DNA from: Eubacteriales bacterium
GTDB lineage: Bacteria; Bacillota; Clostridia; Oscillospirales; CAG-382
Assembly: GCA_045542335.1 (NCBI GenBank)
Contig: JAZQKV010000105.1
Coordinates: forward strand, 1,377 to 65,376
Length of the DNA: 64,000 nucleotides
Direction: 5' to 3'
Position 1 is the stretch's first letter. The number at the start of each line of letters is the position of its first letter. Shown here in pieces: positions 6,376-56,949 of this stretch. The notes beneath the pieces were generated by a model. That model saw only the letters and a list, made by a program, of their open reading frames with translations, made no database searches and was not told the origin of the DNA. A program made the position numbers and the translations under genes.

Positions 6376-7524
6376 TCAAAGGTCAAAAAATGACATTGGT
6401 TCATCGAGCGCACGGCAAAGAACATTTGCATTTGCACCTTTAAGCATCGCTTTATTGTCATAGGGGCGCACAACAACCTTTAAGTCGTCTTTTGATACAG
6501 TTTCAAAGACATATTTTTCAAGCTTATCTCGCAGAAACTCATGGGCAATTGCAAGCTTGTCCGAAACCACGACAACGTCCGGGTCAATCATTCTTGAAAT
6601 GCTGATAATTCCAATTGCAAGATATGAGCATACTTTGTCAAGTGCCTTGCAAGCCGCTTCGTCATTGTTGTTGACAAGCTCAAGTATTTCTTCGGTGCTT
6701 AACTTTTTGCCCGTGTTTGTTATTTCGGAATAATATCTTTCCAAAGCTGTTGTTGAACAGTAATTCTCAAGACAACCTCTGTTTTTGCATCGGCAAAGCT
6801 CTCCATTCGGGTCAATGGAAATGTGACCGATTTCGCCTGCAAGTCCGTGGCTTCCTTTTGAGGGCAGACCGTTGTGAAGAACCGCAGAGCCAACACCTGT
6901 GTAATTTACAATGTGGCACATAACAGAGGGCTTTTCTTCGATGTTGAAATGGTATTCATTAAGTGCGGCGCAAACAGCATCATTCTCAACAAACACCCTG
7001 CAGTCAAACTTGCTTTCAAAGGTTTGCGCAAGCACCTTTCCGTCGTCTGTTTCGTCGCCGTAAAAGCGGGGGACGCTGATTCCGATACCCAACAGCTTTG
7101 CTTTGCCCTTTATTCTTGCGACAAGCTTTTTTGTAAGCTCAAGAGCCTTGTGCGTCATTTCAGCGGTGTTGCCGAAGGTGTAATAATCCTCGAGAATCTT
7201 GTCTGTTTTTCCGGCAAGATTGCAGGTGCAGGCGCACATATATCCTCTTACAACATAAAGTCCGACAGTGCGGTATGCATCATTGTTAAGCTCAAGGTAA
7301 ATCGGCGGTCTTCCACGGCTTGATTTTTCCGAGCGTGTTTCGGTTACAAGTCCGGACTCCATAAGGCGGGAGATAATTTTTGTAATTGTTGCCTGACGAA
7401 GCCCTGTCATAATGGAGATGTCAATTCGCGAAATATCCTTGTGACCGTGAATCAACTTTAACGCCGCAGAAATATTCTTTTCTTTAATGGTGTCAAGATT
7501 CTCGCCTATTTTTTGCGTATTTAT
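6376..7524 (-). CDS. ROK family transcriptional regulator (NagC/XylR-like), probable ATA start
   Basis: HTH SRIDISIMTGLRQATITKI, GRPP, VFVENDAVCAA, GLAGEIGH and CRCKNRGCLE Zn motif. Frame extends upstream of the TTG at 7455 to an ATA at 7524 with a GGGGG SD. Confidence 0.88.
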   Translation of the reverse strand: MNTQKIGENLDTIKEKNISAALKLIHGHKDISRIDISIMTGLRQATITKIISRLMESGLVTETRSEKSSRGRPPIYLELNNDAYRTVGLYVVRGYMCACTCNLAGKTDKILEDYYTFGNTAEMTHKALELTKKLVARIKGKAKLLGIGISVPRFYGDETDDGKVLAQTFESKFDCRVFVENDAVCAALNEYHFNIEEKPSVMCHIVNYTGVGSAVLHNGLPSKGSHGLAGEIGHISIDPNGELCRCKNRGCLENYCSTTALERYYSEITNTGKKLSTEEILELVNNNDEAACKALDKVCSYLAIGIISISRMIDPDVVVVSDKLAIAHEFLRDKLEKYVFETVSKDDLKVVVRPYDNKAMLKGANANVLCRALDEPMSFFDL

Positions 7525-7573
7525 GTCTTTTACCCCCTTTTAAAGGTTGTAAGATAGTTTCTTTCCTCCTTTT

Positions 7574-7602
7574 ATTATATCATGTGTCGCAGTTTTTGTC
7601 AA
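7574..7602 (-). promoter_or_regulatory. Consensus SigA promoter of the ROK regulator
   Basis: TTGACA-N17-TATAAT with an extended TG on the minus strand. Confidence 0.8.
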
Positions 7603-7956
7603 TAACCTTGAAAAAATCTTTTCTCAAAGATGACAGAGCACAAAGCGACAAGTGTGGTTAAAAAAAGTGCGTTGATGTGAGCGATTATGCAAACGGAAGT
7701 TTAATGATTTCGCCGCATAATTACTCAAAACTCAAAAATCATCACCTGTTTTGGGGTAAATATTTGCAAAATCTTATAGAAAACCTTGCAATTATGTGGT
7801 ATCATAATATTGGGAGATGGTTTGGCACACTTTTCTTTCCACCGTGTCTTTATTATACATCAAGTGCTGTCCCTTTTTTGGGACTTTACTATAAATCGCA
7901 ATAGGTTCTTATTTTTTGAAATAAGTAATAGAATAGAAAGAGGGGAGTGAGCCCGT

Positions 7957-9687
7957 GTGAAAAATCAGGCTAATGGAGAATATTCATTTTCAAAGCTTTG
8001 CAAACATTTCAGAATAAAGAGAACAAAGGTCATTAAAGCTATTGTGCTTACGGCGGTTGTCATGCTTGTTTGCACGGGATTTCTTTCTGCATCGGCAAAG
8101 TCCCCTGCAATTGTGAGTCCATGGGCAATGGAGGTTGTTGAAGCGGCAAATCTTGCGGGAATACTGCCTGCCGAAATGTTCCCGACAGACTACAAGGCAG
8201 ACATAACCAGGCATCAGATTGCTGTGCTTGTTGCCAACGCCTACGACAGAATAACGGGCACGACGGGAAGCGAAAATGATCCGGGATTTGCGGACATTGA
8301 CGAATACGCTGAAAAGAGAATTAAATCCCTTGGCATAATGAACGGAAAGGGCGGCGACCTTTTTAAACCTTATGACAATCTGACAAGGCAGGAAATGGCA
8401 AAAATAATTGTTTCGCTGAAGTCTGTCATCGACGGCGAGCAAATCCCCGAAAGCTATGAAAATCCGCCGCTTTCGGATTTTGAGAGTGTTGCTCAATGGG
8501 CAAAACCATTTGTTGCGGCTTCTTTTGCTAACGGAATTTTCAAAGGTCGTTCAGACGGTGCATTTCATCCGGTGGACAATCTCACAATTGAAGAAGCAAT
8601 TGCGGTTGTTATGAGAATAAACCGTCTGCCGGCTGTGGCAAAGCCTGTGATAAAGTCTGAATTTCTTTCCGAAGGTGCAATTCACACAGATGCTGAAATT
8701 ATAACAGTTTCCGTGGAAAATGCAAAGGGCGGTTTTGAGCTTTTCAATTGTTGCAAAACCGAAACGGGAACATATGTGACAACGCTCGGTAACACAACTT
8801 CTTCCTCAATGACAATTCACACCGCAAGCTTTATGGGTAACGGAACTCACTATCTTTTTGCACGTTGTGCAGACGGAGTTTTTTCAGACCCTGTGGAAAT
8901 GGTTCCATACTCCGCAAATGCCGGTCTTCGTACAAGCATTTACAACCCCGATGAATACACAAATCAGGTAACGGTGAACTGGAATCGTGTGGCGATGGCG
9001 GATTCATACACCCTCACCATCAGCGAAACACGATACACCGCAGGCATTGGGGACATTGGCTATGGTCCGACAAAGGTTTATGAATTTGACGACGAAACAA
9101 GTTTTACCTTTGAAGCTTATCCAAATATCACCTATACAATTGAGCTCATGGCAGGAAACTTCTTTGAAACGTGTACGCTTGCCGTGGATTTTGTCACCGA
9201 CAAGGACATTGCTTCAGCAATCAAGGCTTCTTATCCAACCACCAAAGCTGAGGCGCAGGCACTCATGAAAAGCGTGACAGTTCCTGTGTGGAAAATACGA
9301 GATGGCAAAAAAGTTGCCTCTCAGCTTACAGTTGATGTGCATAACCTTATTGCCGACAAGGTTGAGGCGGCATTTAACGATATTTTCAATGGCCCCGAAA
9401 AAGCACCGATTTATACAATCGGAGGCTTTGCATGGCGAGGCGGCAGGTCAGAGCATAATGTGGGCACAGCTCTTGACTTGAACCCTGACGAAAACTATTG
9501 CCTTTACAGCAGCGGCGCAATTGTTGGCTCATATTGGAAGCCCGACGAGGACGAGTATTCATTTTCACCCTATGGCGATGTTGTGAAGTGCTTTGAAAAA
9601 TACGGCTTCACATGGGGCGGCGATGCATGGTTCAACGGCGTGTACGGTACTCGGGACTATATGCATTTTTCTTACATGGGAACATAA
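7957..9687 (+). CDS. Secreted SLH-domain protein with C-terminal M15 family (D-Ala-D-Ala/L-Ala-D-Glu) Zn peptidase
   Basis: Signal-like hydrophobic segment, three SLH repeats (ITRHQIA, LTRQEMA, LTIEEA), an Fn3-like middle region, and M15 motifs R...SEHNVGTALD and DYMHFS. Confidence 0.8.
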   Translation: MKNQANGEYSFSKLCKHFRIKRTKVIKAIVLTAVVMLVCTGFLSASAKSPAIVSPWAMEVVEAANLAGILPAEMFPTDYKADITRHQIAVLVANAYDRITGTTGSENDPGFADIDEYAEKRIKSLGIMNGKGGDLFKPYDNLTRQEMAKIIVSLKSVIDGEQIPESYENPPLSDFESVAQWAKPFVAASFANGIFKGRSDGAFHPVDNLTIEEAIAVVMRINRLPAVAKPVIKSEFLSEGAIHTDAEIITVSVENAKGGFELFNCCKTETGTYVTTLGNTTSSSMTIHTASFMGNGTHYLFARCADGVFSDPVEMVPYSANAGLRTSIYNPDEYTNQVTVNWNRVAMADSYTLTISETRYTAGIGDIGYGPTKVYEFDDETSFTFEAYPNITYTIELMAGNFFETCTLAVDFVTDKDIASAIKASYPTTKAEAQALMKSVTVPVWKIRDGKKVASQLTVDVHNLIADKVEAAFNDIFNGPEKAPIYTIGGFAWRGGRSEHNVGTALDLNPDENYCLYSSGAIVGSYWKPDEDEYSFSPYGDVVKCFEKYGFTWGGDAWFNGVYGTRDYMHFSYMGT

Positions 9688-9701
9688 TTATAGAGTGTGC
9701 C

Positions 9702-9732
9702 AATGGGGAGTTTTCTATGAAAACTCCCCATT
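9702..9732. repeat. Diverged copy of the palindromic REP-like family, possible terminator
   Basis: AATGGGGAGTTTTC-tat-GAAAACTCCCCATT, followed by gaattcacagaaaagtttt, resembling the tails of the copies at 52718 and 61708. Confidence 0.5.
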
Positions 9733-10040
9733 TTTGAATTCACAGAAAAGTTTTACAAAGGGTGGGAGAGATTCATTGGGGGATTTGGTTTTGAGAGAGC
9801 GTTGTACAGCTTTGGGAGTGGTTTAAGATATTTATGAAGATAAAGCGTGATTTTAGTTTTGAAATTCTTGGCGGAGCGTGTGTGCGTTCTGTTTTTTTGC
9901 CGATATTTGTGATATTATGAACAAAGAGCGCAAAAATGTGAAGATTATCATGAAAATATACAACTTCTGTTTTGGTAAAGTAGCAAATCTGTAATTCTCG
10001 GTGAAAAAGCAAAGAGGGCGTAAAAAAATGGCGAATCAGG

Positions 10041-10069
10041 TTGACAATCAGCAGTTTTTGTGATATAAT
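10041..10069 (+). promoter_or_regulatory. Consensus SigA promoter of the large HTH protein
   Basis: TTGACA-N17-TATAAT with TG at the extended -10 position. Confidence 0.8.
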
Positions 10070-10091
10070 TTAAAAGCGTTCGAAAAAACTA

Positions 10092-10105
10092 TAAACAATT
10101 GTTTA
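10092..10105. promoter_or_regulatory. Perfect 14-bp palindrome, candidate operator
   Basis: TAAACAATTGTTTA, about 20 nt downstream of the -10 box. Confidence 0.4.
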
Positions 10106-10193
10106 CGGAATTTTGAAACTGTGGGGGATAACAGTGCTGATTCCGTGGGCAGTACAGCACGGTTTGATTACCGACACCATGGGAGGCGAGAAA

Positions 10194-11648
10194 TTGTATA
10201 ATCAAACTTTCGGACAGTTTTTAAAAAGGGTACTTGACAAAAGGGATTTAAGCACACGCTCACTTGCGGGGATTATGGGGCTTAAGAGCAAAACGCAAAT
10301 AACACGTCTGCTCGACGACAGTTGTACAATGAAAACAATTGAGGCTTTTGCGGAAAAGCTTAAAATTTCGCTTGAGCTTTCAAAAAAAGAAATGTCGGAT
10401 ATGGAGGAGGCAATTCTCAACCATGGAACATCTCAGGCTCTCATAAAGTCAAGAGGTGTCCTTCAAACGCTTCTTACCGGCAAATACAGCGATGCTTCAA
10501 AAAAGATACAGTGCTTTTTGAAAAACGGTTGCGACGAAATTGATGAGCAATATAACCTCGGCGATGCCCTTGCAAGAATGATTGAGCAAAACAAAAACGC
10601 ACAAATTGAGATTTATATCCGCAACATAAATTCTATGGAGCTTGTTTGTGCGCTGACAAAAATTATTCACCGTCAACCCACGCCGAAGCTCACTGTTCAT
10701 CATTATTTCAGCGATGGCGAAAGCGTTGAGGACATTGGTATTTTGCTTTGCGGTCTTCTTAACCTTGCAACTTTTGAGGGGTACTATCCATACAGACTTC
10801 CCGAGGGAATGAGAACAGGCAGCGGACTTGTTGTTTTTGTAAATGGCGGCGAAAAAACAACGCTTATCAACGTTTTTGGCGAAAAGAATTTCTCCGAGAT
10901 AACAGACACGTTCCCGGAGAGTATGTATAAGCATATTAAAAAATCATATGAAAGACTAAGCTCAATAAGCGCACCTCTTAAAAACAGCTTTAGGAGCGAC
11001 CCTCTTGAAAAGCTTTCGGCATTTATTGAGGATCAGATTGAAAAGGATTGCGTGCCGAGCATCGAGCTTGCTTCAACGCTGTGTTTTATGATGGTTCCTT
11101 TTCACATCCAGGAAATACTTTATAAGGACTCAAATTATATGGGACTTGGAAAGGACCATCCTGTTGTCGGCAAAATGGTTGTTGCAATGAAAGAGCGTTC
11201 TGAAAACATTTTTTCGACCAAGAAAAACAAAAACCTCTCTCTCATTTGTACAAGAGAGGGACTTGAACGTTTCCTTGAAACAGGAAAGACCGACGATTGG
11301 TTCCCATTTTTCCGTCAACTTACGCCGGAAGAAAGAGAAGAAACCATTGCAAGTGTCAGACAGAATTTCGGCGGAAATATCCATGTTCTTGCAAAGGAAT
11401 ACAGCGTAAGAAATTTTGAGTGCATTGTTTTCCAGGGCCATGGAATACAGATTTGCGCCCCCGGGGCAGGTTATTGGAGCAATTTCAGCACCGTCGACAT
11501 AACCGATCGCCGCATGGAGCGTCTTTTGAAGGACTTTCTTGCCAATGATGTTATAAGGAATTGTTGCATCAGCGCAAGGGACATGAAAAAGCTTTGGCTT
11601 GATATTGACAGGAAAATTGCAAAAATAAAGGAAAATAGCAAGATATAA
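10194..11648 (+). CDS. Large hypothetical protein with N-terminal XRE-like HTH
   Basis: TTG start after a GGGAGG SD. TFGQFLKRVLDKRDLSTRSLAGIMGLKSKTQITRLL resembles a Cro/XRE HTH; the remaining ~420 aa are unrecognised. Confidence 0.6.
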   Translation: MYNQTFGQFLKRVLDKRDLSTRSLAGIMGLKSKTQITRLLDDSCTMKTIEAFAEKLKISLELSKKEMSDMEEAILNHGTSQALIKSRGVLQTLLTGKYSDASKKIQCFLKNGCDEIDEQYNLGDALARMIEQNKNAQIEIYIRNINSMELVCALTKIIHRQPTPKLTVHHYFSDGESVEDIGILLCGLLNLATFEGYYPYRLPEGMRTGSGLVVFVNGGEKTTLINVFGEKNFSEITDTFPESMYKHIKKSYERLSSISAPLKNSFRSDPLEKLSAFIEDQIEKDCVPSIELASTLCFMMVPFHIQEILYKDSNYMGLGKDHPVVGKMVVAMKERSENIFSTKKNKNLSLICTREGLERFLETGKTDDWFPFFRQLTPEEREETIASVRQNFGGNIHVLAKEYSVRNFECIVFQGHGIQICAPGAGYWSNFSTVDITDRRMERLLKDFLANDVIRNCCISARDMKKLWLDIDRKIAKIKENSKI

Positions 11649-11678
11649 CATTTAAAAAAGTAAAATGTGGCAAAATAT

Positions 11679-11713
11679 AACAGGGGGACAGGCGTGAAGT
11701 CTGTCCCTCTGTT
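11679..11713. terminator. Terminator between convergent genes
   Basis: AACAGGGGGACAGG-loop-TCTGTCCCTCTGTT stem. Confidence 0.65.
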
Positions 11714-11752
11714 GTTCATATGAAAATACTGTTTGTCGGGGAATGTGAAAGG

Positions 11753-13228
11753 TTATGCCTGTTTGCCGGATGCAATGCCCTCGTAGTTTGTGAGGAACGC
11801 CTCGGCGGTCTTTTCCATGACGACGGTTACACGGCTGTCCTTGAAAGCAAACACCATGTCAAGAGTGCCGAAGTATTTGTCAATGACTTGCACCTTGATG
11901 TGAAGCTTCTGAGGCTCAATCCACTCTGCCGAAGCTGCACAGTCATACTGATGTCCGGGAACACCAAACGTTGCCACAAGATCCGAATAACCTTTTTCGG
12001 GGAATTTTGAAAATTCATTTTTGCCAAGACCGAACGCAAGCTCCATGTCACCGTTTGCGTTGGTGTAATTAAGCACGCCGTAATCACCGTTGAAGCTTAT
12101 GCGGAAATTCTTCAGACCCATGGAGTTGCCGTTCATGACATATGTCACGCCGTCAATGTTCTTTGCAAAATCGCTTGTCAGTTTGCCGTCAGCAAAAACA
12201 AGCTTGCGGTTGCTCTCATAAGCGCAAAGCTCATCATAAGCCGCCTTGTTTTCGGGGAGAGGGGTGTCGGAGAGCTTCTCAATTATGTTTTCATAAAGCT
12301 CGTAATAAAGGACAAAGCGTGTCATGGGGGAGTTGCCCTGATTGTCGGAATTTATAACAAAAAGGAAATCTGTAATGGGGTCGTAAATTGCAAACTGGTC
12401 ACCCATTCCAACAAAGGCAAAACCGTCCCGGGGAGCTTTCCAGATCTGATAACCGTAACCGAAACTGCCATAGGTGTAGTGATCGCCAATGTCATTTGCA
12501 ACCTGCTTTGAGGTTGCCTCGGTGAGGAATCTTTCGTCCATATAACGCTTGCCTTCCCATGTGCCCTTGTTGGCAACAAAGCGAGCCATGGTGAGAAGGT
12601 CACGGGAGGTGCACATGATGCCCGAATCGCCGAACGAATGACCGCCCGGGCACTTTATGCAGTATGCATCCTCACTAAAGCCGCAGTCACGCAAAAATCT
12701 GTCCTTGAGAAATTCAAGAAAAGGCTTGCCGCAAATGCGCTCAACAATGGCGCACAGCTGATAGGACACAGGGCTGTCATACTGGAAAAACGTTCCGGGA
12801 ATTTTGTCGGCGGGATTTCTGAAATAAACCTCGGTTCTGTCCTCGGTTCCGCTTGAAAACCAGTTCACGCCACTACGCTTGCAGGTTGACATCGTGAGTG
12901 CATCACGAATGGTCATTTCATAAAGCCATTCGTTGTCATTTTCGTTTTTATATTCGGGAAGATAGTCAATAAATTTGTCATCAAGGCTCATTTTGCCGTC
13001 CTCAACGAGAAGTCCGACAGCAATTGCAACAAAGCTCTTTGAAATGGAATACATTCTGTGCTTGAAGTCCTTGTTGAAAGGCGCATAATAGGTTTCGCAG
13101 AAAATGTTGTTGCCTCTTGCCATGATGATGCTGTGTGTGCTCATCTTGTATTTTTCAAGCATTTTGATAAAGCCGAGAACCGCCTCGGATGATATACCCG
13201 CTTTTTCGGGAGAAATTCTTTCAAACAT
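11753..13228 (-). CDS. Serine hydrolase, beta-lactamase/class C-like (NylB/EstB-like), paralog 2
   Basis: SxxK (YSISKS), YDS in place of YxN, FAFVGMGDQ. No signal peptide; extra C-terminal domain. Confidence 0.8.
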   Translation of the reverse strand: MFERISPEKAGISSEAVLGFIKMLEKYKMSTHSIIMARGNNIFCETYYAPFNKDFKHRMYSISKSFVAIAVGLLVEDGKMSLDDKFIDYLPEYKNENDNEWLYEMTIRDALTMSTCKRSGVNWFSSGTEDRTEVYFRNPADKIPGTFFQYDSPVSYQLCAIVERICGKPFLEFLKDRFLRDCGFSEDAYCIKCPGGHSFGDSGIMCTSRDLLTMARFVANKGTWEGKRYMDERFLTEATSKQVANDIGDHYTYGSFGYGYQIWKAPRDGFAFVGMGDQFAIYDPITDFLFVINSDNQGNSPMTRFVLYYELYENIIEKLSDTPLPENKAAYDELCAYESNRKLVFADGKLTSDFAKNIDGVTYVMNGNSMGLKNFRISFNGDYGVLNYTNANGDMELAFGLGKNEFSKFPEKGYSDLVATFGVPGHQYDCAASAEWIEPQKLHIKVQVIDKYFGTLDMVFAFKDSRVTVVMEKTAEAFLTNYEGIASGKQA

Positions 13229-13254
13229 TGTCTTTATACCTCCGCTTTCGGTTT

Positions 13255-14733: not shown

Positions 14734-14947
14734 GTTTTTGTACCTCCGGATGATTTATAAAAGTGAGCCGTAATGCGGAAAAATACCGCCGATTCACGAA
14801 TTTAACTGCAATATAGCACACGTTTTCCGCAATGCCACTTTGAAAATGCGGCAATAAGTTATTATGTCAAAAACAGCACTGAAATTGCTGCTTTGGTGGG
14901 TGTTATCTGTCTTGCTTCACAGCATTAAAAAGATGCGTGAATAAGAA

Positions 14948-15592: not shown

Positions 15593-15641
15593 TCCTTACA
15601 CATCCTTTCACAGGGAATATAATACTTCATTTCGCACAACA

Positions 15642-40638: not shown

Positions 40639-41373
40639 AACTACCCTTCTTTCTGCTTTTGCCCATGCACAATGGCGACATGAGCGAAATTTTTCGGACA
40701 AAAATCGCCCCTCGGATGCCCGGGCGGCGAAACGGTTGAACTCTCTGAATATTGTTCGTGTGCTGAACTTAAAATCCAACACATCTTTTTTGCAAGGAAC
40801 ATTATAGCAAACATTTTTTGTCACTTCAACATTTTTTTTGGCGGTTTATGTTATTTTTTTAAGAAATACTTGTAACTGAACTTAACAATTCCGTATAAAC
40901 TTCAATTCATCAATTGTTTGAAAAACAAAAGCTGACTCCTGTTTGCCCCTTTACAACGCTAAAGTGCGGATTTGCGGCAGTTTTTACGCACATTACGATC
41001 CGACAATCAACCAAAAGGGAAAATCTTGATAAAAAGCGACGTATTTAAGCGTTTTTCAGGGGATTTACATGACAGTTTGTTTCCTTTTGACATATTGATT
41101 TCGTGTCGGAATTTAAAGCTTACCTTGGCGAAACAACAAAAAAATCCTCCGATGCCTTTGCTCCGGAGTTAAAAGAGGTTGAAGCACGCTCTTAACATAA
41201 GTTAACAAATAGGGTATATTTTATTTCTGATTACACATAAAATACACAACAAAATGTAAATCAAAACTTATAGTTTATTTAAATTCTACATTGATTTCAA
41301 AGTATTGGACTAAAATTTTAAAAAAGGTATATAATAGCTTTATGGAAAAAAGTCGAAAGGGAGGCGAGGGGAA

Positions 41374-42465
41374 ATTATAAGCACGGAATTTTGCAAAAAG
41401 GTACTTTTACACACGGCGTTCTGGGGGATATGTGTTGTTGGAGGATATTTGGTTCTCAAATATGTTGTGCCTGTGTTTCTGCCGTTTATTATAGCGATTT
41501 CGGTTGCGTTTTCGTCAAGACCGCTAAAGCTTTTCATAATGAAAAAAACAAAAATGACCTCAAAGGCATCGGCAGTGGCGGCGGTGACGCTGATACTTGG
41601 CATACTTATATACATTTTCTTTCATCTTTTTGGCACAATGGCAAATGAGCTTGCCTCTGTTTATGACTATCTGACAGCCGAAACGGACATTTCGGGTGTT
41701 CTTTTCGGAACACTTTCAGACGTGACAGCCCGCATATCGGATTTTCTTCCTTTTCTCAATTTGTCGGAGCTTTCGCCTGCGGACAGGCTTTCGGCACTTT
41801 TAACACGCATTTTGCCGGGTTTTACCACGGCACTTGGTGAGGCGATTGCCGCAACGGCAAAGGCTGTTCCGTATGCCCTTGTTTTTGTGGCGGTGACGGT
41901 TATTTCGACATTTTATTTTTCGGTTGACCTTGAAAAAATCACCGCATATTTGTCGGAGCTGTTTCCAAAAAACACAAAAAAGCTTGTTTCAGCGGCGAAA
42001 TCAAAGGTAGCCTCGGCAGTGTTTAAATATGTCAGGGCATATTTGTTCATTCTTCTTATGACTTTTACCGAGCTTTATATCGGCTTTTTGTTTTTGCGTC
42101 TGCCGTATGCATTCAGCCTTGCGATAATTGTGGCAATTGTTGATGTTCTTCCGGTGCTTGGAACGGGAACTGTGCTTATTCCGTGGTCTTTTGTGGCATT
42201 TGCAATGGGAAACACTTTTATGGGTGCGGGAGTTTTGACGCTGTATGTGCTTGTGGCACTTATCAGGCAGTTTTCCGAGCCGAAAATCGTGGGAAAGAGC
42301 ATTGGTCTTTATCCGCCGCTAACACTTGTGGGAATGTATGTTGGAATCAAGCTTTTTGGCGTTTGGGGTATATTTGTATTGCCGCTTCTTATACTTTGTG
42401 CAAAATCTGTGCTTGAGATTATTGCAGTGGGAGCGCAGTCGTCCGGCGAGGAAAAAACACCGTGA
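41374..42465 (+). CDS. ytvI: Sporulation integral membrane protein YtvI (AI-2E family), probable ATT/ATA start
   Basis: FLPFIIA, STFYFSVD, YVRAYL, VDVLPVLGTGTVLIPW, IRQFSEPKIVGKSIGL. The first TM helix lies upstream of the only canonical start (TTG 41449). Confidence 0.8.
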   Translation: MISTEFCKKVLLHTAFWGICVVGGYLVLKYVVPVFLPFIIAISVAFSSRPLKLFIMKKTKMTSKASAVAAVTLILGILIYIFFHLFGTMANELASVYDYLTAETDISGVLFGTLSDVTARISDFLPFLNLSELSPADRLSALLTRILPGFTTALGEAIAATAKAVPYALVFVAVTVISTFYFSVDLEKITAYLSELFPKNTKKLVSAAKSKVASAVFKYVRAYLFILLMTFTELYIGFLFLRLPYAFSLAIIVAIVDVLPVLGTGTVLIPWSFVAFAMGNTFMGAGVLTLYVLVALIRQFSEPKIVGKSIGLYPPLTLVGMYVGIKLFGVWGIFVLPLLILCAKSVLEIIAVGAQSSGEEKTP

Positions 42466-46954: not shown

Positions 46955-46993
46955 GTTTATGCGACAACGGTATAAATTGAAATAAAGTAAATG

Positions 46994-47029
46994 AGGCACG
47001 AGCCCCGATTCGGGACTCGTGCCTTTTTT
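46994..47029 (+). terminator. Intrinsic terminator of the Gfo-YfiH operon
   Basis: AGGCACGAGCCCCG-att-CGGGACTCGTGCCT followed by a T-run. Confidence 0.85.
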
Positions 47030-47064
47030 GTGTTAGTGTTTATAACTCAAGCTTTTATAATTTT

Positions 47065-47258: not shown

Positions 47259-47266
47259 CATAACAA

Positions 47267-48580: not shown

Positions 48581-48727
48581 GGGGTTACCTCCTGAATTGT
48601 TGTTTTTCAAAATATTTGTCATTTCAAAAATATTTACGCTTCTGTAACTACATTATACCATTTTACAGTTATAATAAAAGTTGAAATATAACAAAAAATG
48701 TTGTAAAACAAACATCAGAGGCTTGCT

Positions 48728-49606: not shown

Positions 49607-49765
49607 AAAGTCAGACATTAAAGAAAAAATCTGTTTCCGGACTGAATACTTTTTTCAAAACGACAAAATAATTAAGGGTATGCACAAGATTTTTGCATAC
49701 CCTTAAAAATATGAATTTCCCCGATAGCTTCCATGATAAAAACTTTGTTTTTCTGCGGACTTCAC

Positions 49766-49834
49766 GGGGATTCAAAAGGGTACTTTTCAGACAAAGTACC
49801 CCTTTGACAGGGCGTGGGGCATTGCCCCACATAC
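49766..49834 (-). repeat. Composite palindromic REP-like element, full copy (reverse orientation)
   Basis: Reverse complement gtatgtggggcaatgccccacgccctgtcaaaggggtactttgtctgaaaagtacccttttgaatcccc matches the copy at 61680-61748. Confidence 0.8.
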
Positions 49835-49839
49835 CTCAT

Positions 49840-49938
49840 TTAGTTGTTGCCGCAGAAGCAGCAAAGGAAGATGAGGGCGATGAGGATGATGATCCAGATG
49901 TTGTTGTCGTCTGTGAAAGAATTACCCAAGCAAGCCAT
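49840..49938 (-). CDS. 32-aa hydrophobic Cys-rich small protein, probably spore-associated
   Basis: AAGGAGG SD, then MACLGNSFTDDNNIWIIILIALIFLCCFCGNN; SigK-like promoter upstream. Confidence 0.65.
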   Translation of the reverse strand: MACLGNSFTDDNNIWIIILIALIFLCCFCGNN

Positions 49939-50093
49939 AAATATTTCCTCCTTAAAGTATGCATCGAGAGCCGATGCGATGAAGTTGCGTGAAAGGCAAA
50001 GCCGTGGACATTGCCAAGGGGGGACGGCAAGCCCATAGCACCGCCTGCCACTGCTTTTCACTCATCAAAGCACCTCTTTGAGATGCTTTACTA

Positions 50094-50122
50094 CATACTA
50101 TGACATAAAGCTCCATGCGGTT
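50094..50122 (-). promoter_or_regulatory. Putative SigK-type promoter
   Basis: AACC-N16-CATAGTATG fits the mACm-N16-CATAnnnTr consensus. Confidence 0.45.
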
Positions 50123-50233
50123 CTTGACGAAAGCTCGGGTAAATGCGAAAAATATGGGTATATAAAGCTTTTTAGACGAGAAGTGCGGAGAATAAATTTT
50201 TTTGAAAAAAGTGAAAATATATCAAAAAAACGG

Positions 50234-50262
50234 TTGACAAAACGAATTTTTTACGTTATAAT
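50234..50262 (+). promoter_or_regulatory. Consensus SigA promoter of the asnC-like gene and smpB
   Basis: TTGACA-N17-TATAAT. Confidence 0.8.
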
Positions 50263-50300
50263 AAGGTGCAAACGAAAAAAATTGTGTGGAGGCGATTTTG

Positions 50301-50759
50301 ATGGATGAACTTGATTTCACAATATTATCGTGCCTTAAGGAAAACGCAAGAATGACTTCTTCGGAAATCGGCAAAAAGGTTAATCTTTCGGTTTCTGCGG
50401 TCATTGAAAGAATAAAAAAGCTTGAGCAGTCGGATATAATTGAAAAATACACCGTAACGCTCAATCAGAAATCACTTGGCAATGACCTCATTGCCATAAT
50501 GGAGGTCAGCCTTGAGCATCCCAAATATTATGACGATTTTGTTGCAATGGTAGAGCGCAATCCGAACATTCAGTCGTGCTATTATCTTACGGGTGAATTT
50601 GATTTTATGCTCAAAATTATCACCGATTCAACCGACAGCCTCAACCAGATACACCGTCGGATAAAGAGCATGAAGGGCGTCAGCACAACTGAAACGCATT
50701 TCGTTCTTAAAGCTCTCAAGTGTGAACCGTCCGTTATTCCGACAATGGACTACGAATAA
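50301..50759 (+). CDS. Lrp/AsnC family transcriptional regulator
   Basis: [17 protein letters not shown]...[31 protein letters not shown]. Confidence 0.92.
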
Positions 50760-50794
50760 TATTAACCACAAGTTATCGAAAGGAGCTGATACTT

Positions 50795-51262
50795 ACGGAT
50801 AAGAATAAGGAAATAAAAATCGCCGCACAGAATAAAAAAGCATATCACGATTATTTTATCGAGCAAACCTTTGAAGCAGGTATCGAGCTTTTCGGCACCG
50901 AGGTCAAGAGCATACGTCAGGGTGCAGTAAACATGAAGGATTCCTATTGCCGCATAATCAAGGGCGAGATTTTTGCAACAGGTATCCACATAAGCCCATA
51001 TGAAAAGGGCAACATTTTCAACCGCGAACCCATGCGTGACAGAAAGCTTCTCATGCACAAGCGTGAAATAATGAAGCTTTTCGGACTTGTGGGAACGCAA
51101 GGCTATTCAATTGTGCCGCTGAAAATGTACTTTGTCGGCTCAAGGGTGAAGGTTGAAATAGGACTTTGTAAGGGTAAAAAGCTATACGATAAACGTGAAA
51201 CCGATGCCAAAAAGCAGGCACAGAGGGACATCGAAAGATACTCAAAGGAAAGCAACAGATAA
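50795..51262 (+). CDS. smpB: SsrA-binding protein SmpB (non-canonical start)
   Basis: In-frame [31 protein letters not shown] lies upstream of the ORF-track ATG (50933). Also has [32 protein letters not shown] precedes CTT/ACG. Confidence 0.92.
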
Positions 51263-51370
51263 CTATACTTCAAGGGATACCAATGTGGGTGTCCCTTGAT
51301 TTTCTTTTTGTCACCACACAGCTATATTGCATATAATGTTCATATGAAACATTTAAAAAGGAGCTTTTTC

Positions 51371-51616
51371 ATGATAAATCAATCCAACCTTTCCGAGTTT
51401 CTCAATCTTTCCGACGAACAGCTCAAAAAACGCCTTGAACAAGCCGCCGTTGCCGCAGGTGCTGATAAAAACAAAATCGCCCTCATGCTGTCAAATCCCG
51501 AAAGATTGCGAGCCATCATTTCTTCCCTGACTCCCGAGGATGCTGAACGCATGATAAAAATGTTTGGAAAAGACAAGGCACAGGCAATCGCCGACAGCTT
51601 GAAAAACGGAATGTGA
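51371..51616 (+). CDS. Hypothetical protein
   Basis: AAAGGAG SD + ATG; helical 81 aa; first of three tightly spaced genes. Confidence 0.65.
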   Translation: MINQSNLSEFLNLSDEQLKKRLEQAAVAAGADKNKIALMLSNPERLRAIISSLTPEDAERMIKMFGKDKAQAIADSLKNGM

Positions 51617-51648
51617 AGCGCACAATTTGAGAAAGGAGAGAGTGCAGA

Positions 51649-52077
51649 ATGGATAATCCGCAGGACAAAATCAATGCTTTGCTTTCTGACCCGGAGAATC
51701 TCAAGACACTTGCCAGAATCGCCTCGGGTTTTATGGCACAATCGCCCATGCCCACACCCGAACAGCCGCAAGCTGATGACGGAGCTTCGGCACAGACCAT
51801 CTCTGACAACACCGCTTCCGACGGCGAAAGCTTGTCAAACGGCCAAACAGAAAAAAGCGAAAATGCAGTTCCGACAATTTCAGGTCAGACCGGGGATGCA
51901 GGTCTTTTGTCGGGACTTCTCGGTCCGGGGTTTAAAATTCCGGGGGACGTTGACAAAAGCATTGTGCTTCTCAACGCTTTGAAGCCGTATCTTGGAAATC
52001 ACAAGCGTGAAACGTGTGAGCTTGTTGTAAGGCTTCTTGGGGCGGCAAAGCTGTTGGGAATGTACAAAATTGGCTGA
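51649..52077 (+). CDS. Hypothetical protein (possibly spore-associated)
   Basis: AAAGGAGAG SD; LLSDPENLK and LLNALKPYL motifs flanking a low-complexity linker. Confidence 0.65.
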   Translation: MDNPQDKINALLSDPENLKTLARIASGFMAQSPMPTPEQPQADDGASAQTISDNTASDGESLSNGQTEKSENAVPTISGQTGDAGLLSGLLGPGFKIPGDVDKSIVLLNALKPYLGNHKRETCELVVRLLGAAKLLGMYKIG

Positions 52078-52094
52078 AAGGGGGAGATTTACAT

Positions 52095-52622
52095 ATGTAT
52101 GCGAGAAATTATAATAAGCCGCAAGAAGTTATGCAAGGACGGAAAATACCTGTTCAGAGCTTTCCCGAACCCGGCGTTTTTATGGGAATGGAACGGAGCG
52201 TTCACGAGGACAGAGCCGATTTGAAGCCACGCTTGCACACATCTTTTCCGTCAAGCCGTCCCAAAACAGATGATCTGGTTTCAGACAACGACATTCAAGC
52301 CGACACACACTCGGAGCAAGCTGCCGAAAACACAGATTTGCCCGATGAGCAGACACCCGATGAAAAAGAAAACAACCGGGAAATCCAAACCTTCGCCAAT
52401 ACACCGGCAAAATCAAAAAAAGACATGGGACTTATCGAACGTTTGAGCAAGAATATGTCAAAACATTCCTCCGGCGTTTTTTCGGAGCTTTCAACGGAGG
52501 ATTTTATAATTTTTGCGCTTATTGCCCTGTTTCTTCTTGGTGCAGATGACGATGAGCCTGACGGCAAAAACGAAAAGGACAGTCTTGTTCCTCTTGCATT
52601 GCTTGCTTTGGTTTTGCTTTGA
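52095..52622 (+). CDS. Hypothetical protein with acidic linker and C-terminal hydrophobic segments
   Basis: GGGGAG SD; starts MYARNY; ends EDFIIFALIALFLL...LALLALVLL. Confidence 0.65.
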   Translation: MYARNYNKPQEVMQGRKIPVQSFPEPGVFMGMERSVHEDRADLKPRLHTSFPSSRPKTDDLVSDNDIQADTHSEQAAENTDLPDEQTPDEKENNREIQTFANTPAKSKKDMGLIERLSKNMSKHSSGVFSELSTEDFIIFALIALFLLGADDDEPDGKNEKDSLVPLALLALVLL

Positions 52623-52694
52623 TGCCAAGTGTTCGGTTTGAAAAATGCACAAAAATAAGGGCAGGTGAAAACTGTCACGTCTTGCCTGTAAATC

Positions 52695-52758
52695 TATGGG
52701 ACTTTGCTCCAAAAAAGAAAGGGGTGCTTTTCTTGAAAAGCACCCCTTTGAACACCCC
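52695..52758 (+). repeat. Composite palindromic REP-like element
   Basis: Core AAAGGGGTGCTTTTC-tt-GAAAAGCACCCCTTT (52718-52749) is identical to the 61708 copy except for the loop; tail gaacacccc. Confidence 0.8.
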
Positions 52759-52821
52759 GAAACGCTTTAAATCGGGGTGAATTGCTTATGGTTTTGAGGG
52801 CAAAAACGCCCCAAAAAGTTG

Positions 52822-53976
52822 TTATTCTGCTTCAGTTTCGGTTTCTGTTTCAGCCTCGGTCTCTGCTTCTGCTTCTGCTTCTGCTTTTGCTGCTTCCTCT
52901 GCGGCTGCGGCTTCTTCTGCTGCAATTTCCGCTTCGATTTCTGCCTTGAAGGTGTCAAAGGTTATTTCGTCATAACCCTCGCCATATACAACGGGTGTTG
53001 TGTCGATAAGAGCCTGAATTGCAGACTGAATTGCTGCAACTGTACCGTTTGCTTCGATAATTGCGTAAGCATAGGTGTCTCTGTTTTCAGCAATTTCCTC
53101 GGCGGTGAGAGCAAGGGGAAGACGCTTTATGATGTGGTAGCCATAGCTTGTTTCAACAGGCTCGCCGATTTCGTTATCCTCAAGAGCAAGTGTTCCCTGA
53201 TAGAATTCTTCAACCATTTCGCCGGGGCCAAAGGTGTAACCGTCGGGATTTGCTTCCATGCCGGGGTCCTCGCCGTATTCCTTGACAAGTGCATCGAAAT
53301 CTTCGCCTGCAATTGCCTTATTGTAAACGTCGTTTGCAAGCTTCTTCTTTGCTTCAAGGGCATCGCCTGTGAGTGCGGTTCCGTTCTCGTCGGTTGTGCC
53401 GATGAGAATGTGCTTTGCGGAAGCGTAGTTTTCGTTTACATATTTTGTGATTTCTTCATCGGAAACCTTTTTCATTTCCGCAAGGGAGATTTCATCGTTG
53501 ATTGCGATGAGCTTCATCATTTCGGGAAGCTGTTCTCCGTAAAGCTCGTTGATGTCAACGCCGTAATAGAGCGAGAACATCTGGGTGTAGTAAGCGGTGA
53601 TTTCGTCAATCTTTGCCTGATCGATGTTGTCAACGTCAACGCCGACAGATTTTGCGTAGTTATATGTTGCGGCGTTGGACTTGAAATAGCTTTCAATTTC
53701 GGTGTTGAACTGTGTCTTGAATTCTTCGCTTGAAAAATCAACTTCTTCGCCATTTGTCATATAGTCCTTCTGAATTGTTTTGAAGAAATACTCATAAGAA
53801 CTTCTGTCAACAACATACTCGCCGATGGTGAGTATTGCGGAGGGGGCTGCGTTTTCGGGTTGAGTGTTGTCGGTGATGTTTTCTCCATTGGGGTTAACCT
53901 GGGGGATTTTGTCGCAGCCGCAAAGTGCAGAGAATGCAAGGACGGCGCAAATTACAAGTGCAAGAATCTTTTTCAT
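52822..53976 (-). CDS. Parvulin-type peptidylprolyl isomerase lipoprotein (PrsA-like)
   Basis: Lipobox-like ALCGC, SAKHILI, FDALVKEYGEDPG, MVEEF, ETSYGYHIIKR; EA/ET-rich tail. Confidence 0.85.
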   Translation of the reverse strand: MKKILALVICAVLAFSALCGCDKIPQVNPNGENITDNTQPENAAPSAILTIGEYVVDRSSYEYFFKTIQKDYMTNGEEVDFSSEEFKTQFNTEIESYFKSNAATYNYAKSVGVDVDNIDQAKIDEITAYYTQMFSLYYGVDINELYGEQLPEMMKLIAINDEISLAEMKKVSDEEITKYVNENYASAKHILIGTTDENGTALTGDALEAKKKLANDVYNKAIAGEDFDALVKEYGEDPGMEANPDGYTFGPGEMVEEFYQGTLALEDNEIGEPVETSYGYHIIKRLPLALTAEEIAENRDTYAYAIIEANGTVAAIQSAIQALIDTTPVVYGEGYDEITFDTFKAEIEAEIAAEEAAAAEEAAKAEAEAEAETEAETETETEAE

Positions 53977-54172
53977 TGTTTTTTTCCTGACCTTTCGTTA
54001 TAAAAATTTGTTTTCGGACATTTTTGTACGGCAACGCCAAGTGTAACCATACGCATAAAAAACATTATATCACCCGAATGTGATGAATCTGTGAAAATCC
54101 TTAAAAGTTTACAATATGTTCTTGGAGATGAAAAAAACAGACGTGAACTCTTCAATGGGAACTTTGCAAGAA

Positions 54173-55489
54173 TCAAATGTCATATTTTGCCCTTGCGAAG
54201 TGTAAAACTTCAAGTCCGATTTCGCAAAGGGGTGCAACCGCAACACGACCGAGACTTGCAGAGGCATGGACGATTTTGCCGTCGCCTATGAAAATTGCCA
54301 CATGACCTTTGAAGTAAACAAGGTCGCCCGGACGAAGCTCGTCATGGGTAATTTCCGTTACAAATTCCTCCTTGAAAACCGCATCTCTGAACAATGGGAC
54401 ACCGCAAAGACTGTGTGCCATAAATGCAAGACCCGAGCAGTCAATGCCCGATGGACTTTTTCCGCCCCAACGATATGGCGTGCCAACATACAAAAGAGCG
54501 TTTGCGGCAATTTTTTCGCCGGTTTCCATGTTGTCCTCATACTGTGGCACAAGATTTTCCTTGCGCACAAAGTAACGCTTTTTGCCGTAAAACACCCTGC
54601 AGAAGCGTTCGCCTGCATCATGGATATATTCCACCACAGAGCCTCTTGGCAGAACAGCAATTGGAGAATGTTTGTATTCAGGCGTCGGAAGCAGGTCGCA
54701 CCACGGGGAGAAAACTGTTTTTGTAACCTTGTGTATTCCTCCTGTCACAGGCTGAATGTGCTTTCTGCGGATATAGCCTTTATAGCCGTAATATGTTTCG
54801 CAAAGCACCATGCTTTCGGTATAATCCCCATCTGTTTCATCTGTTATGCAAATAAGAGTTCCGTAAAGAGCTTCGTCAACACATTCTGCCTCAATTGCCG
54901 GCTCGGAATAAAGCATTGCCGAGGGTACGCTGACAAAATATTTGTATTTCTCAGCATCTGCGGCGATTTTTGCGCTTTGCTTTTCAAATTGCTCCGGGAA
55001 AAGCATTTTTGCAAGCCTTGCAACTGTTCTTGCCGCTGTTTTTTCGGGGCGAACGGTTATGTTTGCGCAGGACGAATATGTTCCGATTCTTTTGTTGTAA
55101 AGGGCAGAGATTTCCTCCTTTCCGCCCTTTGCCATGGGACGGCTTTTGTCGCCGAGGATTCTTGTCAGACAATGCCCGAAAGGTGTGTCGAGAAACACGA
55201 TTCTTCCGTGTTCTTTCATTATTTCAACATTTTCGGGACGCATTACACAGCCGCCGCCGGTTGAAATTATTGCGCCCTCGGAGTTTTGGGAAATTTCACG
55301 CAGGACCTCGGTTTCAATTTTTCTGAAAGCCTCCTCGCCCTGTGTTGCGAAAATCTCGGAAATTACTCCGTGTCTTGAAACAATTTCGTCGTCCACATCC
55401 ATAAATGGGTGACCTGTTTCGTTTGCAAGTCCTTTTCCAACTGTGGTTTTTCCGCAGCCCATAAAGCCGCAAAGATAGATGTTATTCAA
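54173..55489 (-). CDS. Fusion: shikimate kinase + SH3b + NlpC/P60 (YkfC-like) peptidase
   Basis: GFMGCGKTTVG, FRKIE, STGGGCV, RPMA (AroK); then DEALYG and LPRGS (SH3-like); then PYRWGGKSPSGIDCSGL...HVAIFIGDGKIVHAS. Confidence 0.85.
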   Translation of the reverse strand: MNNIYLCGFMGCGKTTVGKGLANETGHPFMDVDDEIVSRHGVISEIFATQGEEAFRKIETEVLREISQNSEGAIISTGGGCVMRPENVEIMKEHGRIVFLDTPFGHCLTRILGDKSRPMAKGGKEEISALYNKRIGTYSSCANITVRPEKTAARTVARLAKMLFPEQFEKQSAKIAADAEKYKYFVSVPSAMLYSEPAIEAECVDEALYGTLICITDETDGDYTESMVLCETYYGYKGYIRRKHIQPVTGGIHKVTKTVFSPWCDLLPTPEYKHSPIAVLPRGSVVEYIHDAGERFCRVFYGKKRYFVRKENLVPQYEDNMETGEKIAANALLYVGTPYRWGGKSPSGIDCSGLAFMAHSLCGVPLFRDAVFKEEFVTEITHDELRPGDLVYFKGHVAIFIGDGKIVHASASLGRVAVAPLCEIGLEVLHFARAKYDI

Positions 55490-56337
55490 GAATTGTTCCT
55501 CTTTTCAAGTTCTTTTTCGCAAGCCTTTGCCACAATGTCAAGCTGACTGTCCGTGAAAGTGCAGCCTGTCCAGAGCTCCTGCGCCTTCACAGCCTGAAGA
55601 ATGAGCATCCAGAGTCCGTTTTCGCCATGGATACCATGCTTTGCGGCAATTCGCAGAAGCTCTGTTTCGGAAGGATTGTAAATTGCATCAAAAACACCCG
55701 AGCAATCCTTAACTGCTTCTTCTGAAATGGGAGAAACTCCAACCTTCGGGAACATACCAACGGGTGTTCCGTTGACAATAAGCGGATTGTCAAGTGATTT
55801 TATAGCTTCGGTGTCCTCAAGGGAAAGAACAGCCGGTCTTACATTATATGCCGCCTCAATCTCGTCTGCCAATTCCGCAGAGCTTGCGGCGTTTCGTGCG
55901 GCAATTGTGAGATGCGCACCCATGTCGCAAAGCGCATGGGCAAAGGTTTTGCAAACTCCGCCGCTTCCTAAAAGAAGAACCTCTCTGTCAGCCGCAAGAC
56001 CTCCCTTTTCGAGCGCTCTTGTGAAGCCGAAATAGTCGGTGTTGTGTCCCACAACTTTTCCGTTCTGCTTGACAACGGTGTTAACCGAGCCGAGCTTTTT
56101 TGCTTCGGGGGAAAGCTCGTCAAGAAAAGGAATTGACACAACCTTGTGGGGGATTGTGATGTTGAAGCCGTCAAATTCACGGATAACCTCGGGAAGCCTT
56201 TTGGGAATATCTTCGGGGGCAATTTCCGTGATGTCGTATTCGCCGTCATAGCCTGAAAGGGAAAACAGAGTGTTCTGGATAAGAGGGGAGATGGAATGGG
56301 TCAGGTGGTGACCTATCAGAGTGAAATTTTTCTTCAT
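55486..56337 (-). CDS. aroE: Shikimate dehydrogenase
   Basis: HSISP, NITIPHK, GSVNT, GHNTDYFG, GSGGV, DAIYNP, NGLWMLILQA. Confidence 0.93.
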   Translation of the reverse strand: MKKNFTLIGHHLTHSISPLIQNTLFSLSGYDGEYDITEIAPEDIPKRLPEVIREFDGFNITIPHKVVSIPFLDELSPEAKKLGSVNTVVKQNGKVVGHNTDYFGFTRALEKGGLAADREVLLLGSGGVCKTFAHALCDMGAHLTIAARNAASSAELADEIEAAYNVRPAVLSLEDTEAIKSLDNPLIVNGTPVGMFPKVGVSPISEEAVKDCSGVFDAIYNPSETELLRIAAKHGIHGENGLWMLILQAVKAQELWTGCTFTDSQLDIVAKACEKELEKRNNS

Positions 56338-56424
56338 ATTATACTTCCTTTTGAGTGAATACTGCGTGCCGTCGTTCAAGAGCATTCGCATGAGAATCAG
56401 AGGGGGTGGGACGTCTTTATGCCC

Positions 56425-56949
56425 TTATTTGAAAAGCTTGCCCTTGAAACGGTATCTGTAAATTATCGCCGCAACGTTGAGAAAAAGGTCGTAGGCGAAG
56501 AGAAAAACGTTTGCCGCAACAAGCGTCACAACAAGCATTGCCGTTGTGAACCCCTCCTCAATGCCAACAAACTTTACCGTGATAAATGCAAGCACTCCAA
56601 CGCAGGCATTGAAAAGTGCAAGCTTTATGATAATGCCAATGGGAACGCACTTTACCGTGTGCCTTTCGATGACCGTTTTGAGAATGGGATAATGCCCGAG
56701 AAAAAGGACATAGTAAAGCGTTGCAGGTCTTAGCGGCATGAAAATGAGGGAAGCCACGGAGGAAACAGCATAAACGAGCCAAGCACGCTTTGCAGTTAAT
56801 TCTTCCCTCGCAACAAGCACCGCAAGGCAAGCTGCCGATGCTGCCGTGAGGTCAAGGATTTCAAAAAATCCTCCTATTATAACAAGCACTGCCCCAACCG
56901 CCGAAAGCATGGCAGAAAGTGCAAGGCTTTTTGTGTCGGTTCTCTTTAT
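56425..56949 (-). CDS. Multi-pass membrane protein, probable ATA start
   Basis: GGGAGG SD, 8 nt, then ATA gives (M)KRTDTKSLALSAMLSA; several TM helices; GHYPILK. Confidence 0.7.
   Translation of the reverse strand: MKRTDTKSLALSAMLSAVGAVLVIIGGFFEILDLTAASAACLAVLVAREELTAKRAWLVYAVSSVASLIFMPLRPATLYYVLFLGHYPILKTVIERHTVKCVPIGIIIKLALFNACVGVLAFITVKFVGIEEGFTTAMLVVTLVAANVFLFAYDLFLNVAAIIYRYRFKGKLFK

Follow-up and report, generated by a model that had tools for sequence, protein, structure and literature searches.

Where do four genes begin in a 64,000-nucleotide (nt) stretch of a gut-type Clostridia genome (Eubacteriales), when the sequence typical of their families reaches upstream of the first ATG, GTG or TTG in their reading frames? 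The stretch, called the window below, is G000:C105:1377-65376, that is, positions 1,377 to 65,376 of contig JAZQKV010000105.1 (C105) in a metagenome-assembled genome (MAG; G000) of 2.77 Mb and 126 contigs with a completeness of 91.6%. The genes encode a ROK-family transcriptional regulator, the sporulation protein YtvI, the SsrA-binding protein SmpB and a small membrane protein. A preliminary description had proposed that each starts at a near-cognate codon behind a strong Shine-Dalgarno (SD) sequence and that the lineage does so routinely. Our analysis favors the first proposal and speaks against the second. The four genes probably initiate at AUA or AUU behind strong SD sequences, through recent, species-specific replacements of the start codon in an organism whose initiation machinery looks canonical.

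Ribosome-binding sites and N-termini of the four genes

The genome has a G+C content of ~45% and SD-dependent starts as in Firmicutes, and the ~75%-identical homologues of its SmpB carry the names Ruminococcaceae or Clostridia bacterium. Genome-wide, start codons most often lie 7–8 nt beyond the end of GGAGG, and 1,778 of 2,067 open reading frames (ORFs) have a canonical start with an SD. The ORF set (2,192 ORFs) consists of stop-to-stop frames picked by codon usage and the censuses made with it are approximate. The assembly lacks the 16S 3′ end; the anti-SD was assumed to be canonical, and the duplex energies given here rest on that assumption.

A survey of starts over the 60 ORFs of contig C105, ~58 of them inside the window, flagged the same four genes as the preliminary description. 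ORF reading and profile searches confirmed that each has a family-typical N-terminus upstream of its first ATG, GTG or TTG and that an in-frame near-cognate codon follows a strong SD, at a spacing of 8 nt (ROK gene), 9 nt (ytvI), 8 nt (membrane protein gene) and 3 nt (smpB). The four SD duplexes have energies of -12.1 to -14.0 kcal/mol, within the strongest quarter of SD-bearing canonical starts, and promoter-like sites lie 36–50 nt upstream of the ROK, ytvI and membrane protein gene starts. A fifth look-alike (62309-63208, minus strand), with ATA ATA behind AAAGGA, was dropped as a strong SD precedes its canonical ATG 63154. By itself, a near-cognate codon at the spacing of an SD is weak evidence, because an orphan SD offers two in-frame codons at 5–10 nt and the seven near-cognates are common. 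What takes the four cases beyond chance is that each ATA or ATT aligns with the canonical start of its orthologues and that other samples yielded contigs with the same codon for three of the four.

The smpB frame runs from stop to stop over 50726-51262 (plus strand) with ATG 50933 as its first canonical codon. A protein started there has 109 residues, as in the public call (against 157), and lacks 48 residues of the SmpB domain. The SmpB profile NF003843 (PF01668) is matched at 205 bits against a cut-off of 130, over positions 5–154 of 156, only if the frame is read from near 50789. Behind GAAAGGAG, the codons CTG 50786, ATA 50789, CTT 50792 and ACG 50795 stand in frame. The preliminary description had named ACG or CTT as the start; we rank both below ATA, which emerges as the best candidate, as a contig of the same species (L067; ERZ28436076, 96% identical) has ATG exactly at the ATA position, reading GGAGCTG-ATG-CTT-ACG where the window reads GGAGCTG-ATA-CTT-ACG. 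ACG also ranks below ATA because it mismatches the second codon base, and IF3 is reported in a survey to tolerate nothing but Watson-Crick pairs at the first and second bases (PMC10158994). A point on the side of ACG is that a 93%-identical relative has its ATG at this codon.

In this family, smpB starts repeatedly stand only 1–3 nt after GGAG (GGAG-CA-ATG, GGAG-CTG-ATG and GGAG-A-GTG), against the 7–8 nt usual in this genome. The loci compared were window 50778-50791, L002 and L003 (from the relatives G002 and G001), L067, and L028 (from G029). The smpB start site thus appears to have conserved an unusually short distance from its SD. As a separate observation on the neighboring AsnC-type gene upstream of smpB, an exact look-up matched the form starting at ATG 50301 and matched neither the TTG 50298 nor the GTG 50286 form.

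The ROK regulator consists of a winged helix-turn-helix (wHTH) and a ROK domain, the latter matched by PF00480 with an E value of 1e-47 in a profile search. Its stop-to-stop frame is 6376-7539 (minus strand) and its first canonical codon, TTG 7455, has no SD; the public call starts further down, at ATG 7362, and gives 328 rather than 382 residues, losing most of the wHTH. The NagC and Mlc profiles align from residues 8–9 of the ATA-initiated protein, and the ATA precedes the conserved NLDTIKE motif by 8 residues, just as Met1 does in the homologue P0129. The SD duplex, at -12.7 kcal/mol, is within the strongest 17% of SD-bearing canonical starts. Because of where the promoter lies (Table 1), the ROK leader would be short and end in the SD and ATA, and TTG 7455 would lie ~110 nt into the transcript without an SD. 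We also considered ATC as a conserved non-AUG start of this gene in G001 and G002 and dropped it; the collection calls an in-frame GTG three codons upstream, and other homologues have ATG. A second perfect SD-like sequence, AAAGGAGG, is found at 7565-7573 (minus strand), where it adjoins the downstream end of the -10 box in the ROK promoter, ~45 nt upstream of ATA 7524. It has no start codon at a working distance after it and is probably located at or before the 5′ end of the transcript.

In ytvI the stop-to-stop frame covers 41338-42465 (plus strand) and TTG 41449 is the first canonical codon. ATT 41374 is 9 nt behind GGGAGG and is followed by ATA 41377 at 12 nt. The SD duplex of -14.0 kcal/mol ranks in the top 7.5% of SD-bearing canonical starts, and a promoter-like TGGACT-18-TATAAT lies upstream at 41306-41335. 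YtvI matches TIGR02872 with 213.2 bits against a cut-off of 198.15, and the match begins 13 residues upstream of TTG 41449. The public call has 338 residues instead of 363.

The small membrane protein belongs to no Pfam or NCBIfam family. Its gene has a stop-to-stop frame of 56425-56973 (minus strand), its first canonical codon, ATG 56910, has no SD, and the public call has 161 residues against 174. The SD duplex amounts to -12.1 kcal/mol, and a promoter-like TTGAAA-17-TG-TAAAAT is located upstream at 57013-56985. Since just 13 residues are at stake, the argument from an upstream N-terminus is weaker for this gene.

Table 1 Coordinates of the genes, candidate start sites and related features. 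Positions without a contig refer to the window; those with a contig (C) number are in the same genome (G000) outside it.
Feature	Position	Strand	Remarks
ROK-family transcriptional regulator (wHTH + ROK domain)	6376..7524	-	382 aa if read from ATA 7524-7522
SD of the ROK gene, AAAGGGGGT	7532..7540	-	8 nt before ATA 7524-7522
Sigma-70-like promoter of the ROK gene, TTGACA-17 nt-TG-TATAAT	7574..7602	-	12/12 consensus matches; ~50 nt upstream of ATA 7524
ytvI (sporulation integral membrane protein, AI-2E family)	41374..42465	+	363 aa if read from ATT 41374
SD of ytvI, GAAAGGGAGG	41355..41364	+	GGAGG ends 9 nt before ATT 41374
smpB (SsrA-binding protein)	50789..51262	+	157 aa if read from ATA 50789
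SD of smpB, GAAAGGAG	50778..50785	+	3 nt before ATA 50789, 9 nt before ACG 50795
ACG, alternative smpB start candidate	50795..50797	+	aligns with ATG of 93%-identical relative (L068, L069)
Small polytopic membrane protein gene	56425..56949	-	174 aa if read from ATA 56949-56947
SD of the membrane protein gene, GGGAGG	56958..56963	-	8 nt before ATA 56949
infC	G000:C124:616-618		ATA 8 nt behind GGAGGTG, at IF3 profile position 1
PBSX-type phage terminase large subunit	G000:C61:27537-28946	-	candidate ATC 8 nt behind 9-nt SD GAAAGGAGG
RluA-family pseudouridine synthase	G000:C115:5402-6427	+	candidate ATA 8 nt behind GAGGTGA
SD-hairpin-ATG leaders	C8:8347, C75:9673, C77:28023, C123:6080, C49:56093	+	
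SD-hairpin-ATG leaders	C31:13820, C31:8097, C119:2996, C124:28457	-	
Similar leaders	ahead of C99:26069-27463, C122:3999-6329	-	

Start codons in relatives and in other strains

To align each gene with its orthologues was a check named in the preliminary description, and it places the odd codon of all four genes where orthologues have a canonical start. The ytvI ATT corresponds codon for codon to the ATG of G001 and G002, which belong to the same genus, with a shared CKK six codons downstream as the anchor. The membrane protein ATA falls exactly on the TTG with which the G001 orthologue starts; each of the two codons has an SD and precedes a shared ATA ATA GGA by 23 codons. In G005 (TTG), G006 (ATG) and G008 (ATG), the start of the membrane protein orthologue is about as far from the first transmembrane segment. 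Across 25–40 relatives, almost all orthologues of the four genes start at ATG, GTG or TTG, the exceptions being an ATA in the membrane protein orthologue of G009 and an ambiguous smpB start in G029. The odd codons are thus not conserved in other species, where smpB, ytvI and the ROK gene have ATG, GTG or TTG and the G009 ATA is the sole exception.

In G009, which represents another genus of the family, that ATA (L040, G009:C67, minus strand, upstream of locus position 1995) comes immediately after an in-frame stop and has AAGGGGG 7 nt before it, and the first ATG of the gene stands at the residue that corresponds to ATG 56910 of the window. This combination of an upstream ATA and a shared downstream ATG could mean that a weak start arose in parallel or that both lineages have moved their start downstream.

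Contigs of the same species assembled from other samples served as an independent check of the sequence. The ytvI ATT ATA is retained in L070 (Logan SRR28221499, 99.5% identical). The membrane protein ATA is retained in L071 (Logan SRR28221499, 98.8%) and in L072 (ERZ27302939 k141_2063385, 93.1%), and the smpB ATA in L074 (ERZ27302939, 96.5%) and L075 (Logan DRR768613, 98.7%), so that across four strains smpB has ATA in three and the ATG of L067 in one. The preliminary description had taken an ATG in a close relative as the mark of an assembly error. Such an ATG was found once, in the smpB of L067 (96% identical). Since the ATA persists in two further contigs of the species, ATA/ATG is a within-species polymorphism rather than an assembly error. 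L072 shows a related change at the membrane protein gene, where it reads GGGAGGCG-ATG-ATC-ATA and the window reads GGGAGGCG-ACG-GTC-ATA (alignment to window 56950-56957). The new ATG is two codons upstream of the retained ATA and only 2 nt from the SD, as if a canonical start had been gained in compensation.

That the odd codons are errors of metagenome assembly is, in light of these contigs, extremely improbable. The genome is a MAG in 126 contigs and one conspecific contig does have ATG at the smpB site, which is what an error would look like; however, the smpB ATA recurs in two other samples, the membrane protein ATA in two and the ytvI ATT in one, the recurring contigs each carry single-nucleotide polymorphisms of their own, and one would not expect errors to fall on precisely the third base in four start codons.

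The strains also bear on whether the sequence between the odd codon and the first canonical codon is translated. Over the 48 smpB codons upstream of ATG 50933 there are four synonymous codon differences to L067 and L074 and, besides the ATA/ATG start, no non-synonymous one; L075 has a deletion of one in-frame codon (3 nt) in this extension, just downstream of the ATA. With all of these changes synonymous or in frame, the extension is evidently translated and under constraint. Over the whole of smpB there are 5–11 synonymous and 0–1 non-synonymous differences across strains, the lone non-synonymous one being the ATA/ATG start, and the membrane protein gene has 25 synonymous and 5 non-synonymous differences. 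The same counts argue against an early stage of pseudogenisation, in which loss of the start codon would be the first lesion and the four genes would no longer be expressed. The weak starts are species-specific and the genome does hold decayed genes, such as a frameshifted pyruvate-kinase fragment on contig C46, and both would suit this explanation. We nevertheless regard it as very unlikely, given that all four frames are intact, that the differences in smpB and the membrane protein gene are mostly synonymous, and that smpB is near-universal in bacteria. The pyruvate-kinase fragment (G000:C46:15973-16425, minus strand, and upstream) is split over two frames with no recognisable N-terminal part, and is either a decayed gene or the product of an assembly indel.

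Genome-wide census, initiation machinery and clustering

In a census over ~2,070 ORFs, each in-frame codon upstream of the first canonical codon was scored for a strong SD 5–10 nt upstream of it. Such an SD was found at 49% of ATG, 14% of GTG and 9% of TTG codons. The corresponding values were 1.2% for ATA, 0.9% for ATT, 1.4% for ATC, 1.1% for CTG and 3% for ACG (3/99), with ~1% for unrelated codons. Neither this census nor two stricter screens revealed an excess of ATA, ATT, ATC, CTG or ACG behind an SD. As a rough estimate there is room for at most ~25 SD-backed AUH (AUA, AUU or AUC) starts, ~1% of genes, and our best count is ~7.

The initiator tRNA, which the preliminary description had named for inspection along with IF3, is canonical: the gene on contig C126, CGCGGGGTAGAGCAGCCTGGTAGCTCGTCGGGCTCATAACCCGGAGGTC, has the anticodon CAT and an intact GGG/CCC anticodon stem with its three G-C pairs. 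IF3 is present in full length by profile match (228 bits, positions 3–169 of 170), a measure of the whole protein rather than of single fidelity residues.

These results do not support the proposed routine use of near-cognate codons in the lineage. A lineage with relaxed start stringency, in which AUA, AUU, ACG or CUG would serve routinely across the genome, could explain why four of ~58 window genes are affected, why infC, a terminase gene and an RluA-family gene also look AUH-initiated, and why G009 has an ATA in its membrane protein orthologue. We find it improbable all the same, with no SD-linked enrichment of near-cognates in three censuses, a canonical initiator tRNA and an IF3 intact in length, nearly all orthologues in 25–40 relatives starting canonically, and conspecific strains with ATG at the smpB ATA (L067) or two codons upstream of the membrane protein ATA (L072). 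The pattern is a handful of recent, species-specific changes and not a genome-wide habit, and it points to no new initiation mechanism.

Manual review of the hits of the genome screen left just three further credible cases, infC, a phage terminase gene and an RluA-family pseudouridine synthase gene (Table 1). The infC start has the classic autoregulatory layout, and from its position the ATA appears to show that an SD followed by ATA is a working start context in this organism; infC starts at ATA in other Firmicutes as well (PMC13009471). The ATC start of the terminase gene is likely, with the Walker A motif GGARGGGKS of the protein encoded upstream of the first ATG. For the RluA-family gene, the sole canonical alternative is an in-frame TTG three codons later and 17 nt from the SD.

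Several points weigh against initiation at the four AUH codons. Only 3 nt separate the GGAG from the smpB ATA; the spacing is likewise short before the ATG of L067, the ATG of G001 and G002 and the GTG of G029. For the ROK gene we found no second assembly that contains it. TTG 41449 of ytvI has a GGAGG 4 nt upstream, and the membrane protein gene has the internal ATG 56910, at which G009, itself with an upstream ATA, also has Met. Finally, the four cases cluster within 50 kb of a single 64-kb window, and the remaining 2.7 Mb have about three, so that 4 of ~7 credible cases fall in 2.3% of the genome. By automated criteria alone, 3 of 6 cases are in the window where 0.14 are expected (Poisson P ~4e-4, or ~0.02 after allowing for the ~43 windows of the genome). 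A cluster of this kind can arise by chance among the ~250,000 windows scanned; it may also have a local cause, e.g., a linked haplotype.

Two of these points would fit true starts at the downstream canonical codons, with the upstream SD and AUH codons as relics and N-terminally shortened proteins: the GGAGG ahead of TTG 41449, and the Met of G009, which would suit a start that has migrated downstream. The public gene caller also picked downstream starts. Against this, SmpB would give up 48 residues of its core domain, a stretch under purifying selection, and the ROK regulator would give up helix 1 of the wHTH, or most of the wHTH at ATG 7362. TTG 7455, ATG 50933 and ATG 56910 are without an SD in a genome where the great majority of ORFs have an SD-led canonical start, and the YtvI profile begins upstream of TTG 41449. 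On balance we judge downstream initiation unlikely. Initiation at the AUH codons, inferred here together with its efficiency, is the most likely account.

Other candidates were set aside. An ATA start for RimO on contig C56 was rejected, as a TTG five residues before the profile start fits, and an ATA on C11 (PqqD-like) is internal to a conserved region. A P-loop ATPase gene on C116 (Walker A HYGSGKTN) has an AGGAG with ATA, ACG and ATT after it, their aligned spacings being 0, 3 and 6 nt; it is ambiguous, with an in-frame ATG 12 codons further up that has GAGG 10 nt upstream. Many orphan-SD hits were ATG starts at a spacing of 13–16 nt, and several arose because of a family of SD-hairpin-ATG leaders. 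At least 11 genes have this common leader of ~55 nt, AGGAGGG(T/A)C-TGAAATC...ATTTCAG-ACAGCATAAA(A)-ATG, in which a hairpin of ~14 bp separates a perfect SD from the ATG ~45 nt further on. When five copies are aligned, compensatory changes are seen at 5 of the 14 stem pairs, and no Rfam family matches the leader at E <= 1. Folding would put the SD ~10 nt from the ATG and form a split ribosome-binding site, an arrangement similar to that of phage T4 gene 38.

Comparison with known AUH starts and implications

The sequence of events that we favor would be as follows. An ancestral ATG or TTG was replaced by AUA (smpB, the ROK gene and the membrane protein gene) or AUU (ytvI) in this species. The strong, well-placed SD would hold the 30S subunit on the site, where fMet-tRNA(CAU) would read AUA or AUU and be mismatched at no base but the third. 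Such a mismatch is the type best tolerated by IF3, and the genome's own infC appears to start with one. Output from such starts would be expected to be lower and sensitive to IF3. The substitutions would be slightly deleterious or neutral and buffered by the strong SD, and the initiation machinery would be unchanged. We favor a mildly deleterious or neutral character over a selected regulatory device because some strains carry ATG at or beside the weak site.

In E. coli, infC starts at AUU and is autoregulated by IF3. In a Gram-negative host, AUA, AUU, AUC and CUG reportedly initiate at low but measurable levels in reporters, a study that says nothing on natural use in Clostridia. A second E. 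coli gene with an AUU start is pcnB (PMC13009471). By analogy with infC and pcnB, the genes described here may combine a near-cognate AUH codon behind an SD with weak, IF3-sensitive initiation, a scheme that the infC of this genome would follow with ATA. Unlike E. coli infC, an old and conserved regulatory device, three or four of the codons here look like recent substitutions with no sign of conservation.

The closest parallel is in Staphylococcus aureus, where retapamulin ribosome profiling revealed starts at AUA in infC, ccpN and citZ and at AUU in cvfC1 (PMC13009471). They stand behind extended SD sequences and reach ~10–30% of AUG output in reporters, and the citZ AUA is confined to one strain lineage (PMC13009471). 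As in S. aureus, we have a Firmicute, strong or extended SD sequences, a third-base mismatch (AUA or AUU) and a handful of genes per genome that include infC and a transcriptional repressor, and the restriction of the citZ AUA to a lineage resembles the smpB ATA/ATG polymorphism. Unlike S. aureus, where initiation was measured, the present starts are read from sequence; apart from infC the genes are different ones (smpB, ytvI, the ROK regulator and the membrane protein), and four of them are clustered within 50 kb. The odd codons here are also not conserved beyond the species, unlike those of ccpN and cvfC1.

More tentatively, and with doubt on our part, the four genes might be seen either as an erosion of ATG to ATA or ATT that is buffered by strong SD sequences, with the cluster as a linked segment, or as an IF3-sensitive regulon. 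In the case of erosion, the weak allele may persist at high frequency and some strains may restore or create an ATG, as in smpB (one strain of four) and at the membrane protein gene of L072, and the four-gene cluster could be a chromosomal segment that hitch-hiked or escaped recombination. Alternatively, infC and the AUH genes could make up a small regulon through which the level of IF3 would be coupled to ribosome rescue (smpB) and sporulation (ytvI).

If the four genes do initiate at AUH codons, their public calls are wrong, with SmpB losing one third of its length and the ROK regulator its DNA-binding helix. The preliminary description had anticipated a systematic truncation of gene calls: the public collection does truncate all four genes, but few further cases were found genome-wide. 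Annotation of Clostridia MAGs should admit ATA, ATT and ATC behind a strong SD where homology demands it. The finding indicates no altered translation apparatus, and we give it moderate weight for annotation and modest weight for biology. The few SD-driven AUH starts listed so far for Firmicutes would gain natural examples, one of them in the gene of the ribosome-rescue factor SmpB, and the within-species ATA/ATG polymorphism of smpB could serve to measure the cost of a weak start.

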